From contig OZ244621.1 in assembly GCA_965218425.1 (NCBI GenBank), positions 1,888,001 to 1,952,000 of the forward strand: a stretch of DNA of 64,000 nt. Reading direction: 5' to 3'. The notes below the pieces were generated by a model that saw only the letters and a list, made by a program, of their open reading frames with translations, ran no database searches and was not told the DNA's origin. The translations under genes were made by a program, and so were the position numbers. The stretch is from an uncultured Candidatus Binatia bacterium (lineage in GTDB: Bacteria; Desulfobacterota; Binatia; UBA9968; CAXXLF01). Positions 32,277 to 57,155 of the stretch are shown here, in pieces. Position 1 is the first letter of the stretch. The number at the start of each line of letters is the position of its first letter.

Positions 32277-32547
32277 GGGGGCGCCCCTGAAAGACCGTTT
32301 ACTACCGGCGCCCGGATTGCCTGCATACCTCTAAGATAGCCTTCGGCAATCAGCCCATGGATTGCCCCTCGTTGCGGTGCGGGCTGAGCGGATTCCGGCG
32401 CGGCCCTCTCTTCAAAGCCGTCGGCCTCTCTGAAGATGAAAAGCGCGCCGGCGGTTTGAGGAAACGACCACGGCGCGTTATAGTTCGTCGGGTCTATTGT
32501 GCTATTTAACCGGCGTTTGGGCAACAGCTCGGCCGGACCCGGCCCCC
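32277..32547. repeat. Array spacer S0 (degenerate ends)
   Basis: Starts GGGGGCGCCCCTGAAA (cf. 34509); 32475-32547 matches 50700-50772 and ends GACCCGGCCCC versus GACGTGACCCC. Confidence 0.55.
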
Positions 32548-32564
32548 GCGTTTAGGAATTTACC

Positions 32565-33308
32565 ATGGAGCAGGAACTCAAACCGGATAAGCTGGCGGTG
32601 CTGATCGACGCCGATAACGCGTCGCCCGGCATTGTCACGGGCCTGATCTCGGAGATATCGAATTACGGGGTTCCATTGGTTAGTCGGGTCTACGGCGACT
32701 GGACCCAGCCTCAGCTGAACTCGTGGAAACACGTGTTGCTTGGCCATGCGATACAACCCGTCCAGCAATTTCGATATACGGTTGGCAAGAACTCCACCGA
32801 CAGCGCGATGATTATCGACGCCATGGACCTTCTATACTCGCGGCGGTTCCAGGGGTTCTGCCTTGTATCGAGCGACAGCGACTTTACCAGGCTCGCCTCT
32901 CGAATTCGGGAAGAAGGACTTCGCGTTTACGGATTTGGCGAGAACAAGACACCGCGCGCCTTCGTGTCCGCATGCGACAAGTTCATATTCACGGAGATTC
33001 TCGTCCAGCCCGATAAATCGCAACCCGAGACCCGCCGAAAGACCACGGACCAGCTGAAACGCGATTCGAAGCTGATCGGACTGCTCAGCTCCGTTGTCGA
33101 AGCCGCCGCGGACGAGTCAGGCTGGGCTGATCATGGAACGGTCGCAAACCGGATCGCGCAGCGGTTTTCCGACTTCGATTCCCGTAATTACGGCTATGCG
33201 AAGCTGAGCGGGCTCATAGAAGCCACGCAGCTCTTTGACCTGGATAAGCGCGCAACGAGCGAAGAGGGTCACGTGCGGGTCCTGGTTCGAAAAAAGTCTG
33301 AAGACTGA
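32565..33308 (+). CDS. NYN (LabA/DUF88) domain protein with C-terminal OST-HTH/LOTUS
   Basis: VLIDADN, YGDW, GKNSTD..IDAMD, SSDSDF, FDSRNYGYAKLS. Confidence 0.92.
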   Translation: MEQELKPDKLAVLIDADNASPGIVTGLISEISNYGVPLVSRVYGDWTQPQLNSWKHVLLGHAIQPVQQFRYTVGKNSTDSAMIIDAMDLLYSRRFQGFCLVSSDSDFTRLASRIREEGLRVYGFGENKTPRAFVSACDKFIFTEILVQPDKSQPETRRKTTDQLKRDSKLIGLLSSVVEAAADESGWADHGTVANRIAQRFSDFDSRNYGYAKLSGLIEATQLFDLDKRATSEEGHVRVLVRKKSED

Positions 33309-33375
33309 GCGTTCTGATTACCCCCCGGCGGCCCATGAGATCTGGATCGGCAAGAGTGTATATCGGCGGCGGTTC

Positions 33376-34395
33376 CTACTCGCCTTTCAGCATCCGGTCA
33401 AGTTTTTCCCGGTCTTTCTGGGACGGGTGCAGGAGTTTTCGCACGATGGGAAACGCCTCATCCGGCGAAAGGTAACCGATTACATATCCTTTTTTCTTGG
33501 CCTGATTCGTGAACTCGCGATCCCGTGTGACTTGCCTTAACGCCCACCTGAGGAACTCGACTCTTTCCTTCGGCACCCCTGGATTGGTTGCCATAAAGTA
33601 GCCTACTTCCCCGATTCTGATCCAGCTGTCCAACGGCTGAGGAATATTCTTGACGGTTTCATAGAGCGTGGGCGTATCAGGCGCCGCAGGGGCTCGCCTT
33701 TGTCCGATGTGCAATAACGGCACGACCAACCCGTCTTTGATGGCTGCGGCGTAAAGGTTCGCCCCATAGGCGGCCACGTCCACCTCTCCGCTCATCAGGG
33801 CCTGCCGCACCGAGGCGCTGCCCCGGTAGCCGGGAACGAACCTCACGTTGAGGCCCAACACCTCGCGTAGTGTGAGACCGATAAAATAATTGTTGCCGCC
33901 CAAGCGAGTCAGGCCCCATTGAAGGGGTTTATCGGCTCGCTTCAGATCCTGCAGCGATTTGAACCTCGGCTTATAAGCGAGAAGGGTGTTTTCCGTGGGG
34001 GCGACCACGCCGATCCAGTGCAATTTCTCCAGATCGTATTGAATACCCGCTCGCCCTGAAACCCTGCTGAGCGTTTGAGTCGAGCCGAGATGCCAACCCA
34101 CGGTCAATCCGTCCGGTCGGGTCCTGTTATAGAGATGATTGAACATGCCCACGCCGCTGCCCGCGGGCCGGTTCTGAAGCACGATTTTAGCGCCCGTATA
34201 CTTTTCGAAGAAAGGCGCGGTCAGCCGGGACGTTCCGTCCACGGATCCTCCCGGTGACGACCCGATCATCCAATTGATGGTCTTGCCGTTGTAAAAAGCC
34301 TTTGCCTTGGCCGGTTCTTTCTCGCCTGCGAAGCCTGCCTGTGCCGTGAGCAATGAAATCACGACCGCGATTACTGTCCCAGGTTTGCACTTCAT
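33376..34395 (-). CDS. TctC/Bug-family tripartite tricarboxylate transporter substrate-binding protein
   Basis: Signal peptide; SPGGSVD, NRPAGSG, PDGLT, GYRGSA...GEVD. Confidence 0.85.
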   Translation of the reverse strand: MKCKPGTVIAVVISLLTAQAGFAGEKEPAKAKAFYNGKTINWMIGSSPGGSVDGTSRLTAPFFEKYTGAKIVLQNRPAGSGVGMFNHLYNRTRPDGLTVGWHLGSTQTLSRVSGRAGIQYDLEKLHWIGVVAPTENTLLAYKPRFKSLQDLKRADKPLQWGLTRLGGNNYFIGLTLREVLGLNVRFVPGYRGSASVRQALMSGEVDVAAYGANLYAAAIKDGLVVPLLHIGQRRAPAAPDTPTLYETVKNIPQPLDSWIRIGEVGYFMATNPGVPKERVEFLRWALRQVTRDREFTNQAKKKGYVIGYLSPDEAFPIVRKLLHPSQKDREKLDRMLKGE

Positions 34396-34508
34396 CCGAT
34401 TCTCCTTTCGGGAGCGGCCTTTGGCGGTATCCGTCCCCGGCGAGAGTAGGTTACTCGAATTGAGCGCCTCGAGTCAATCCTCTATGGAAGGTTGGAAGAC
34501 GCGTCATA

Positions 34509-34700
34509 GGGGTCGCCTTGAAAAATGCCGTATTCAAGGTGTTCGACCTTTCGCGCCCCGGTTTCGATTTAACGGCCCTTTCAGGGCCGTTTTTCGAGCC
34601 CTGAACGCCCCGGAAGAAGGTGGGATGTTCCAGGCTCGCACATGCGGCAAGGGGGGCGGCCGTATTGAAATTCCCTCCGTTGATTCGCCCGTCATGCCCC
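34509..34700. repeat. Array spacer S1
   Basis: Starts GGGGTCGCCTTGAAA; GATTTAACGGCCCTTTCAGG...GAGCCCTGAACGCCCCGGAA shared with ~47400 and, inverted, with 53655-53705; right end uncertain. Confidence 0.55.
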
Positions 34701-34820
34701 GGCTTTATCTGGTTCCTCTAAGACGGCCGGATCTATCTGGCCGACAACGCCGCCGAGCGGGCGCTGCAAGGTATTGCGCTCGGCAGAAAATCGCGGCTTC
34801 TCGCCGACTCCGATCACGGT
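34701..34820 (+). mobile_element. IS66-family transposase (TnpC) remnant
   Basis: FL*DGRIYLADNAAERALQGIALGRKSRLLADSDHG resembles the IS66 motif FLDDGRI.L.NNAAERALR.VALGRK.WLFAGS. Confidence 0.8.
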
Positions 34821-55429: not shown

Positions 55430-55711
55430 GCCCGGAGAGAGCCTACCGCATTCACGAAAGGTATGGTCCAGGGTAAGCGAGTGAGACTGGAGTATGACCA
55501 AGCTAACGCCCACATCGAACACAAAGACAGGTTAAGTAGGACCCTCGCCTATGTATTCCTAGGAGATGGCGCGTTCCTCCATGCAGAGATCATCAAGCAG
55601 GGGTATGGGTTTGCGTATACCCGGTTTCCGTTTAAGTACCTGGACGAGTTCAGGCGCTACGAACGAGAGGCGAGAGAGCAGCGTAGAGGGCTTTGGGGGG
55701 AGAGTAGGTAG
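55430..55711 (+). pseudogene. 5'-truncated thermonuclease (SNase) gene
   Basis: GKRVRLEYD...KDR..RTLAYVFL.DG...EIIKQGYG...EREAREQRRGLW; the N-terminal catalytic half is missing. Confidence 0.88.
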
Positions 55712-56098
55712 CCACTGATCCTCAACAGTCCCAACTGTGTCACTTTCTTGTGTAGATCTGCTCCTGCAAAGTTCTCCATTGGATGATCTCCTTTCCTGCT
55801 ACTGGACTTGTCGTGTACAATACGACAAAACCTCGACCGAGGACCATTCCGTTTATGGGATCAATTAATGCGTCGATTAATTGCATCTTGTAATGATTGA
55901 CAACCTTTTCCCATGTGATAATGGTACCTTAGTAATAAGACAATAAGAGTCACCTCCAGCATTGAGAAGGTTTCTAGTGCAAGTGAGCCTCAACCAAAGA
56001 AGTGGGCTGACCAGTGGCTCTTTCGGGAATTCTTGGGTTCGTGTTGACCGCTCCTCAAATGCAGATTCCTATCATTTTCAAGCACGGAGGGACCTATC

Positions 56099-56671
56099 AT
56101 GGCTACATTCTCAATTCATCCGGACGTCGACAATGGCCTGAAGCCTGCCGGCCCCGACTTCGCCGGGGGCACTCTCAACTGTCATTGCTCCAGTGACAAG
56201 GTATCCGTCTCGATATCCGCGCAATGTGCCCACAACCATGTGTGCGGCTGCACCAAGTGCTGGAAACCGGAGGGCGCCCTGTTCTCGCAGATCTCCGTCG
56301 TCCCGCGCGAGAGCCTCAGTGTGACGGCCAACGAGGACAAGCTCCAGATCGTAGACAAGAACGTCGCCATTCACCGATATGCATGCAAGGGTTGCGGCGT
56401 GCACATGTATGGGCGCATCGAGAACAAGGACCACCCGCTCTACGGCCTCGATTTCATTCACACGGAGCTATCCGACGACGAAGGCTGGGCGCCGGCCGAG
56501 TTCGCCGCCTTCGTGTCGTCCATCATCGAGTCGGGCACCAACCCGAACGACATGGACGCCATACGCGCCAGGATCAGGGAACTCGGCCTCGAGCCGTACG
56601 ACTGCCTCTCGCCGCCGATCATGGATCTAATCGCGACTCACACCGCCAAGGCGTCGGGCTTGCTAAGCTGA
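56099..56671 (+). CDS. gfa: S-(hydroxymethyl)glutathione synthase (glutathione-dependent formaldehyde-activating enzyme)
   Basis: [41 protein letters not shown]. Confidence 0.95.
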
Positions 56672-56753
56672 CGGATGAAGGTCAGGACCCATCCCTGAGT
56701 TGCCAATCACCAAAGGGGCTCAAGTGCCCCTCCACCCGATTCTAAGGAGTTAA

Positions 56754-56868
56754 AGAGGCGCTGGTCTTACTTTATCCGTATGGTGTACGAAACAGATCCT
56801 CTTATCTGTCCCATGCGTCACGGGGAGATGCGGATTATCAGCTTTATTGGCCAGCCCGAAGTCATTAT
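56754..56868 (+). mobile_element. IS91-like (Y2) transposase C-terminal remnant
   Basis: RRWSYFIRMVYETDPLICPMRHGEMRIISFIGQPEVI resembles W..LI.KVYE.DPL.CP.C.GEMRII.FI. Confidence 0.7.
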
Positions 56869-56955
56869 TCACGCCAAATGCGCTTAATTAGCTCTTTAAA
56901 TTAATCCTGGCGGTCCAACCCTAAGCAAACCCAGGCCCAGAGCGGCTTTGAGGGT

Positions 56956-57155
56956 TGTGTCAGACTTGCCTTCTTGCTGTTCCAGGTTTCCTTCCCTTTC
57001 GGATTCCGGCTTGTATTATACCAGTTCTCTCTTGGAATGTCCTGTCCACTTGGGCGCGGTCCACCAAGGCATGGGGTCTTCTCCTTTCAGGTTTGATGGC
57101 CGCTACAACCGCCGTCCTGCTGGAGCTTGACCCCTTTTTCATGTTGCCTGACCCC
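56956..57155. repeat. Array spacer S10
   Basis: Starts TGTGTCAGACTTGCCTTC, ends GTTGCCTGACCCC. Confidence 0.9.

Follow-up and report, generated by a model that had tools for sequence, protein, structure and literature searches.

Between 32.4 and 57.2 kb of a 64,000-nt stretch of genome G000 (G000:C1:1888001-1952000, hereafter the window; the genome is a single 4.46-Mb contig), 11 intergenic multi-copy repeat blocks alternate with 10 gene modules. The explanation favored here, with a probability of roughly 60%, is that elements of a known kind, the TIRtrons, have piled up in a defense island and been involved in its rearrangement, so that what lies between the genes is TIRtron-derived MITEs (miniature inverted-repeat transposable elements) of about 200 nt and fragments of other element families. 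The first-pass annotation of this stretch had taken the same pattern for an integron-like array, built at short terminal motifs by a RAYT-like enzyme acting in trans. Its count of about 11 spacers between about 10 cargo modules was borne out when blocks and modules were delimited by repeat finding and by BLAST of the window against its own genome (Table 1). What it described as cargo bounded by inverse motifs, however, is the same arrangement seen from the other side: miniature elements, with inverted terminal repeats, that sit in the gaps between genes.

The Parent Element

Four Y1_Tnp matches were found in the genome, one of them an intact 325-aa TIRYT gene (G000 2583267-2584241) 0.64 Mb from the window. 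Its product matches PF01797 (Y1_Tnp) with 63.4 bits (cut-off 23) and NF047646 (REP_Tyr_transpos) with 72 bits (cut-off 80), and its C-terminus resembles Bac_DnaA_C (25.9 bits, E 1e-5, cut-off 31.5) and the DnaA C-terminus of TIGR00362 (E 1.8e-5). The sequence contains H-V-H and RYIHLNP, which we take to be the HUH and catalytic tyrosine motifs; a PDB sequence search with the protein gave no matches. The gene is flanked by GGGGTCCGGCTTGCCTTATTGC on one side and GCAAGAAGGCATGCCTGACACC on the other. The ends of the intact element, GGGGTCCG... and the complement of ...CCTGACACC, each have one mismatch to the pattern GGGG[AT][CG]A[CG], while the MITE consensus, GGGGTCAG, fits it in full. This is the consensus given, as GGGGWSAS, for the terminal inverted repeats (TIRs) of TIRYT genes in the relevant portions of Di Nocera, De Gregorio & Rocco 2013 (PMC3733652), where TIRtrons are described, and repeated in those of Quentin et al. 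2018 (PMC6006769), where TIRYT is equated with TnpA_REP subclass 2.1. In the main TIRtron family the inverted terminal repeats begin (GAAACC)GGGGTCAGG.

A tblastn search with the intact protein found 50 pieces genome-wide, a single one of them full-length; the five pieces in the window, in spacers S4, S6, S9, and S10, are all fragments. The suggestion of a RAYT-like element, with a Y1 (HUH) transposase, as the source of the ends was therefore sound. An intact gene combining Y1_Tnp and a helix-turn-helix with the same ends had been proposed as something to look for elsewhere in the genome; the one described above would fit, its C-terminus being DnaA-C-like. A second TIRYT gene (L019 925-1893) lies between core genes with GGGGTCAGACCTTGACA on both sides, and S2b is a solo copy of its flanking end. 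Further TIRYT-like genes, possibly broken, occur at G000 1970981-1971887, about 19 kb past the end of the window, and at 365774-366528; each aligns in two pieces, at 31-55% identity. Bearing on mobility, there are many element copies with differing flanks, and copies occur in two genera.

The architecture had been thought undescribed, but clusters of TIR repeats around TIRYT genes are already in print, in the part of PMC3733652 drawn on here. Among the papers listed by a literature search, none joins RAYT or REPIN with “defence island.”

The IS110-Like Half and the Chimera

The spacers are mixed remnants of mobile elements from at least four families, both non-autonomous derivatives and fragments. 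The common spacer of about 200 nt is a chimera. Its “A” half consists of the right inverted repeat together with the 3′-terminal part of the TIRYT gene. Its “B” half, from CAGGTAACATGA (CAGGTAA) onward, can be aligned with the left ends of IS110-like copies from another genome of the class, G274, where the preceding flank is CTCTA(G/A), with no GGGGT; against the TIRtron's own 5′ region, it has no likeness past GGGGTC.GG. In S8, a broken IS110-family transposase start lies 83 nt inside the GGTGTCAGG end, with only these 83 nt between the B end and the ATG. Where the N-terminal fragment is open, it aligns to positions 1-61 of NF033542 (E 2e-5) and to positions 1-42 of PF01548 (E 0.0056), both below cut-off, for a fragment of residues 1-~60. 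Only the first ~50-60 codons of this lineage survive in the genome, with no C-terminal part, and the genome's two intact IS110 genes belong to another lineage. No intact parent was found in G000, in the sister genome G001 of the same genus, or in G002 of another genus; among 301 genomes of the class, three had any match, those in G274 being interrupted where contigs end.

Since all six aligned A+B copies, including those of G001 and G002, have an identical A-B junction, sequence comparison indicates that the chimera arose once and was then copied with only 9 nt of the left repeat. A description of the spacers as purely IS110-derived MITEs was rejected, as the other half encodes the TIRYT C-terminus.

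S0, S8b, and the right-hand portion of S7 derive from the ends of an IS1182-family insertion sequence (IS) and are 73-83% identical to the ends of intact copies, of which there are four in G000 and many in G001 (transposase 487 aa; NF033551 306 bits, cut-off 270). The outer terminus of this family is GGGGTCA(A/C)(A/G)TCTT.TCGG at 10 loci, hence the motifs reported at 32547 and 50772. The four G000 copies (695014-696648, 728107-729721, 740562-742174, and 4375024-4376638) are near-identical and differ in the ~15 nt outside the conserved ...TTTGGGCAACAGACCG; two of their eight ends read GGGGTCAAGTCTTTTCGGT, the form found at the 10 loci overall. The rest of the spacer DNA consists of other small repeat families, here called D and F.

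Copies of the elements are truncated and decayed in many different ways. Seven of the eight window elements point the same way. With replichore arms set by cumulative GC skew (minimum 1.81 Mb, maximum 3.81 Mb), genome-wide orientations were 21 minus to 9 plus on one arm and 22 minus to 17 plus on the other, an orientation bias without the flip expected for single-stranded DNA transposons. A complete MITE folded as single-stranded DNA does no better than shuffles (z -0.72), its termini being unpaired in the minimum free energy structure, and an Rfam scan of positions 30000-60000 at E <= 1 gave no matches. A promoter-like AGGACA-17-TA(C/T)AAT with an upstream TG occupies the same place in three of the four A+B MITEs (44583-44611, 55288-55316, and 57015-57043, all on the minus strand) and is directed outward across the right repeat; the one in S9 is the only one aimed at a gene start, that of the cupin gene. 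In a promoter and terminator scan, promoter-like sites were not above shuffles (7 vs. 9.7 +/- 3.5).

Short Motif and Longer Termini

Special significance had been attached to a short CCTGAC(C/A)CC-like motif, with its genome-wide frequency as the check. The bare 9-mer GGGGTCAGG shows no enrichment: it occurs 78 times exactly against 78.9 expected, 18 of the 78 within elements, and of 200 permuted 9-mers, 19 equal or exceed it in frequency. Within the window, allowing one mismatch, there are 33 matches against 20.8 +/- 5.0 in shuffles, a number reached by 2 of 100 shuffles. The longer patterns are specific, with 39 B, 38 TIRtron-1 (T1), and 23 TIRtron-2 (T2) termini genome-wide against 0, 1, and 0 for the reversed patterns. 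Nor are the spacers a single family with paired ends: the 19 motif positions first listed fall into several classes (Table 1).

Distribution and Comparison with Relatives

Elements bearing A or B number 69 in the genome, and 58 of them are in eight islands that make up 229.5 kb, or 5.1% of it; gaps between elements have a median of 5.1 kb, whereas random placement gave 44 kb, and no less than 26.7 kb in any of 1000 trials. The family was found in 4 of 41 relatives searched, G000 counted: G001 has 18 matches, G002 has four, and G009 has one weak match of 32 nt. Identity across the two genera is 82-94%.

Synteny with G001 extends to window position 32331 and resumes at G000 1954332, 2.3 kb past the end of the window. 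Because G001 holds 7.9 kb of other genes at this site (CBS, ApbE, NqrA, OEP, ion channel, and IS genes), the 34 kb that run from 32.3 to about 66.3 kb make up a variable island, specific to the strain and containing several defense systems. Neither of its outer borders, as defined against G001, is at a terminus or motif, and its last 8.5 kb, which include glycine-betaine-type ABC transporter genes, have no termini. The same cargo is present elsewhere in G001 (hsdRM, 95%; NYN, 86%; GFA, 94%, in two copies), with repeats at none of the four loci; similarly, spacers are found at none of 37 metagenomic Shedu loci, the best of which is 76% identical in protein, so that these offer no population variants of the island. 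Islands with the same termini in G001 and G002 contain IS256-, IS3-, IS481-, and IS1182-type transposases and group II introns, along with McrBC, HEPN, caspase, and Schlafen-like genes. The clustering, the repeat-free cargo in relatives, and the other mobile DNA in these islands fit elements accumulating in accessory islands that tolerate junk; a dedicated cassette platform does not fit. The idea of a purpose-built, integron-like array is also at odds with the IS110 and IS1182 pieces in the spacers and with the position of the borders off the motif.

Two further similarities among these genomes were noted. The hsdR and hsdM genes (34931-40573) are 95% identical to G001:C7 979839-985498, at another locus, where flanking core genes are 79-87% identical; at the sequence level this suggests a recent transfer. 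In G001:C7 18567-21760 and G002:C1 1240380-1243573, a MITE has the same flanks on both sides over the aligned ~80-100 nt, which points to a recently shared island segment.

Four public metagenome contig sets were compared with positions 32000-50800. Among the 15 joints listed of 85, there was no clean excision or empty-site joint; the contigs stop at repeats, and the joints listed either connect repeat modules belonging to other copies or are internal to hsd.

Breakpoints of Exchange between Islands

Several parts of the window have copies in the genome's other islands. Positions 32469-34611 are 98.5% identical to G000 2467877-2470018; 48955-52893, a run of several modules and spacers comprising S6, the EEP gene, S7, and the ankyrin gene, are ~91% identical to 1680583-1683975; and 52761-53388 are 97.3% identical to 1179702-1180330, the homology ending 6 nt short of the S8 terminus. 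When the eight islands were compared with the genome (homologies of at least 500 nt and at least 85% identity), 36 low-copy homologies with 72 endpoints were kept. Fourteen of the 72 endpoints are within 30 nt of an element terminus (T1, 6; T2, 4; B, 3; IS, 1) and 13 are within 10 nt. Random island positions fall within 30 nt in 1.6% of cases; for random positions outside open reading frames (ORFs), the figures are 4.9% within 30 nt and 1.8% within 10 nt. The element termini are thus breakpoints of exchange between islands, and both cutting by the transposase and insertion followed by recombination among copies fit. Of the earlier expectation that synteny breakpoints would coincide with the motifs, this part holds; it fails for the island's outer borders.

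A 1.1-kb segment with a 194-aa ORF (G000 1545930-1547069; L083 931-2070) is 98% identical in G000, G001, and G002, in neighboring DNA that is ~80% identical. Some 22 nt past the end of this segment, at G000 1547091-1547178, is a short hairpin repeat (CCGTAGTG...CACTACGG), copies of which in G001 are 90-92% identical.

Weighing the Explanations

Not everything agrees with elements that merely piled up and were caught in rearrangements. Simple secondary insertion is insufficient: in four cases where an element is present at one locus only, homology never resumes on its far side. In one instance, a cargo end shared by two loci borders a family-2 end in the first and a family-1-like end in the second. 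For two duplications, the starting point is exactly a TIR's outer terminus, and as much as 1.6 kb of neighboring DNA is carried along, which for one of them includes a PLP-decarboxylase gene; both look like one-ended mobilization. The 98%-identical segment ends at the same nucleotide in all three genomes, with a MITE terminus adjoining it in G001 and G002 and none in G000. The binomial p for the breakpoint enrichment, 5e-10, overstates it, the endpoints not being fully independent; no empty and filled pair was found for any window spacer; and the portions of PMC3733652 and PMC6006769 drawn on here report no TIRYT activity. The observations on homology, on the two duplications, and on the shared segment would be expected if the GGGGTCAGG termini were active joining sites, at which TIRYT acting in trans cuts and rejoins, or reads through, and so moves adjacent genes and builds the array; the excess of endpoints within 10 nt, the presence of an intact TIRYT gene, and the shared orientation of the window elements also speak for this. 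We nevertheless consider it unlikely. The cargo is repeat-free in relatives, the spacers are heterogeneous (with DDE as well as DEDD element fragments), neither island border is at a terminus, and duplicated blocks span several modules with their internal spacers. The cargo side of the junctions has no conserved sequence, the 2-6 nt beside the core vary, and strand bias does not depend on the replichore; insertion and recombination between many copies would give the same picture. More doubtful again is the proposal that the termini are working recombination sites at which TIRYT in trans copies and swaps adjacent modules among islands. If true, it would amount to a transposase-based counterpart of the integron, assembling defense islands and seeded by miniature elements.

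Members of the IS110 family are guided to repeated intergenic targets, and a recombinase of this (bridge-RNA) type recognizing the TIRtron end could have been the architect, inserting repeatedly between GGGGT and CAGG, with modules joined by recombination between targets. All 39 B-type termini do join GGGGT to the IS110-like left end, and the related left ends in G274 have another flank. However, the internal junctions shared by A+B copies point to one ancestral insertion and subsequent copying instead of many insertions, an intact copy of the lineage is in none of the three genomes, with any match in just 3 of 301, and neither a right end nor a guide RNA was found (Rfam gave no matches). Such an architect is improbable. 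It is harder still to credit that the host keeps the repeats for a function of its own, as promoters, terminators, or insulators between foreign genes, with transposition incidental: the promoter-like site shared by most A+B MITEs and the conservation of the family over two genera could be read that way, but such sites are no commoner than in shuffles, one in three faces a gene start, and the copies are decayed and truncated in many ways. Least credible is a chromosomal integron in decay, or a set of clustered attC sites whose integrase has been lost; all that speaks for it is that short repeats alternate with genes that are mostly single. Tyrosine recombinases (PF00589) have five matches in the genome and none in the window, and the ORF at the left edge of the array is an SGL lactonase, so that the earlier statement that no IntI lies beside the array is correct. 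The spacers, 50-640 nt long, are of several kinds and include transposase fragments; a complete spacer shows no folding signal; gene orientation is mixed, and some modules have two to four genes. With no IntI nearby and, as judged by spacer anatomy, no attC-like sites, the integron was rejected.

Cargo Genes and Other Features

Cargo genes were annotated with Pfam and PADLOC, which agree with the first-pass annotation on hsdRM, TIR, Shedu, HNH, EEP, ankyrin, cupin, and GFA. It was also right that the cargo is varied in composition and orientation: GC content ranges from 46% to 64%, and both strands are used.

Table 1. Repeat blocks, cargo modules, and classes of previously listed motif positions (window coordinates).
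Feature	Position and strand	Block extent	Description
S0	32445..32546 +	32445-32546	IS1182-family terminal ~100 nt (solo end fragment); outer end ...GGACCCGGCCCC
Cargo 1	32565-33308 +; 33376-34395 -		NYN+OST-HTH gene (+); TctC-family gene (-); Pfam
S1	34565..34615	34565-34615	51-nt piece of separate hairpin-bearing dispersed repeat D; without TIR end
Cargo 2	34928..41221 +		Type I restriction-modification: hsdR (start about 34928), hsdM 37385-38842, hsdS 38839-40614, unknown 193-aa ORF
S2a	41297..41484 -	S2, 41297-41548	A+B chimeric MITE; B end without outer ~15 nt
S2b	41490..41548 -		TIRtron family 2 solo inverted repeat (GGGGTCAGACCTTGACA...); overlaps last codons of TIR-domain gene
Cargo 3	41530..42390 -		TIR-domain protein (CAP12/PycTIR-like)
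S3a	42487..42787	S3, 42487-42939	B-type termini at both ends, around IS110-like N-terminal fragment
S3b	42792..42939		F repeat (about 15 copies); inverted copy 48726-48781
Cargo 4	43053..44465 +		Shedu SduA; E 3e-160
S4	44517..44726 -	44517-44731	Complete A+B chimeric MITE: TIRYT residues 291-319 with the right TIR, and an IS110-like left end carrying 9 nt of the left TIR
Cargo 5	44800..46988 -		Mrr_N-domain ORF; HNH endonuclease ORF
S5	47027..47663	47027-47663	Composite: 2-copy segment starting GGGGTCACGTCTT (47036); D-type repeat 47326-47420; IS110-like N-terminal fragment + B end 47515-47658
Cargo 6	47804..48710 +		Two small AT-rich ORFs (141, 177 aa); sole family match weak, BamE-like
S6	48783..49167 -	48726-49167	TIRtron-1 with internal deletion; TIRYT residues 1-52 + 267-325, both TIRs kept; subfamily of 4-5 copies
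Cargo 7	49212..50615 -		EEP-family nuclease/phosphatase; true start uncertain
S7	50326..50772	50326-50772	Remnant B terminus (CCGGAGTCAGGTAA); IS110-like N-terminal fragment (50339-50413); another repeat module; IS1182-family end (50514-50772)
Cargo 8	50842..53293 -		603-aa ankyrin-repeat protein; unknown 180-aa ORF
S8a	53394..53715 +	S8, 53392-53973	B end (GGTGTCAGG), then IS110-family transposase pseudo N-terminus (ML*VGIDYH...), then D repeat
S8b	53716..53973 +		Other end of IS1182-family element (fragment)
Cargo 9	54044..55100 -		Cupin-domain protein, one of several diverged paralogues
S9	55220..55430 -	55220-55433	Complete A+B chimeric MITE; TIRYT residues 291-325
Cargo 10	56099..56671 +		GFA-family protein; Pfam
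S10	56952..57157 -	56952-57160	Complete A+B chimeric MITE; TIRYT residues 291-324
TIRtron-1 ends, 6/19	41296, 44524, 48786, 49167, 55229, 56956		
B ends, 8/19	42487, 42788, 44722, 47656, 50328, 53394, 55429, 57155		TIR outer 9 nt + IS110-like left end
TIRtron-2 solo end, 1/19	41544		
IS1182-family ends, 2/19	32547, 50772		Outer termini of end fragments
Motif position	47036		13-nt resemblance to IS1182-family terminus, no more
Motif position	34509		Without repeat support

The longest cupin ORF (54044-55345, minus strand, 433 aa) starts at the ATG of the IS110-like fragment in S9 and reads through the MITE; this extension is probably due to chance, because alignments of the paralogues begin near 55021. 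An apparent repeat within the cupin gene (54239-54994) was rejected as part of an element, the copies being diverged paralogues 64-70% identical.

Within hsdS are internal repeats of 88-89% identity (38916-39006 with 39747-39837, and 39502-39576 with 40381-40455). Metagenome contigs connect 39015-39020 to 40379-40381; these could be hsdS variants or come from other organisms.

To the left of the island, at 25429-25565 and also at 23612-23682, is a different dispersed repeat of ~100 nt, present in about 40 copies, 75-89% identical, that are evenly distributed across the genome. Another family has 8 copies. Both are unrelated to the island repeats.

A Possible History, and What It Means

Returning to the favored explanation, the accumulation of TIRtron derivatives in a defense island, the following course of events may be proposed. 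An IS110-family element would have inserted into the left repeat of a TIRtron between GGGGT and CAGG, the CAGG being common to both. A deletion might then have fused the first IS110 codons to TIRYT codon ~290, leaving a chimera of ~200 nt with the 3′ TIRYT sequence and right repeat on one side, and on the other the left end of the IS110 element capped by the outermost 9 nt of the left repeat. This chimera presumably multiplied in trans in G000, with related copies in G001 and G002. Such non-autonomous derivatives may have landed in short intergenic gaps, or survived only there, and the resemblance to cassettes would come from having elements with inverted ends between nearly every pair of genes. 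Their termini could have served as breakpoints when segments were duplicated or exchanged among the eight islands, whether through cuts by the transposase at the ends or through insertion and then recombination between copies.

What this adds to known TIRtron-derived miniature elements is small: the chimera of IS110 and TIR sequences, and the enrichment of termini at breakpoints. A regular gene-repeat-gene pattern in a defense island can stem from miniature transposons with inverted ends, with no need for a capture system. TIRYT elements are almost unstudied, and progeny of about 70 copies, presumably dependent on a transposase in trans and traceable to one intact gene, make a good test case of whether, and in what way, such enzymes mobilize DNA. 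An IS110-type element apparently landed on the end of a Y1 element, and the spread of the resulting chimera with 9 nt of one repeat narrows what the mobilizing enzyme would need. Finally, termini occur at the breakpoints of inter-island duplications about ten times as often as expected, so the debris may help to shuffle defense genes.

Comparison with Known Systems

The island resembles integron cassette arrays and clusters of attC sites lacking integrases (CALINs) in its alternation of short repeats with mostly single, unrelated, often defense-type genes. It differs from them in having no IntI and, judged by anatomy, no attC-like site (one kind of imperfect palindrome of 55-140 nt per cassette), in its mixed orientation and multi-gene modules, and in repeats that are remnants of transposable elements.

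Elements of the IS91/ISCR type carry out one-ended capture of adjacent genes by means of Y2 rolling-circle enzymes. The two duplications with one precise border at a terminus and the other border arbitrary are similar to this; they are the only two such cases here, and one-ended capture of this sort is, to our knowledge, not known for the Y1 enzymes of TIRYT elements.

IS621 and ISPpu10 are IS110-family elements that insert into repeated intergenic (REP-like) targets. The chimera has in common with these an IS110-like left end joined at a fixed point to a repeated sequence, and a short core (CAGG) present in both target and element. It is distinguished by the proposed target, which would be the inverted repeat of a Y1 element, and by the lack of any recombinase or guide RNA of this lineage among the matches in this genome.

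The REPIN/RAYT system (Bertels and Rainey, 2011) is similar in having few intact IS200-related transposase genes (here one of T1 type and one of T2 type, with partial copies) and numerous short derivatives without coding capacity, for which mobilization in trans is presumed. Here, however, REP hairpin doublets and the GTAG or CGTC tag are both lacking. The ends are ordinary inverted repeats, the element as a whole does not form a hairpin (its fold being no better than shuffles), and instead of being scattered through intergenic DNA, copies cluster in islands.

The closest relatives are the TIRtrons with their TIRYT genes, as characterized in the portions of PMC3733652 and PMC6006769 drawn on here. 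The likeness includes a transposase of the Y1 HUH type, ~325 aa long, whose C-terminus may be a helix-turn-helix tail of DnaA-C type; flanking inverted repeats that begin GGGG[AT][CG]A[CG]; moderately abundant repeat families that are single, paired, or clustered; and the coexistence in a genome of more than one family, T1 and T2 in this case, with a gene for each. The present elements differ in three points that those portions do not mention: most copies are deletion derivatives of ~200 nt, the commonest being chimeric, with the left end of an IS110-family element; 58 of 69 are packed into eight accessory or defense islands; and their termini are enriched at rearrangement breakpoints.

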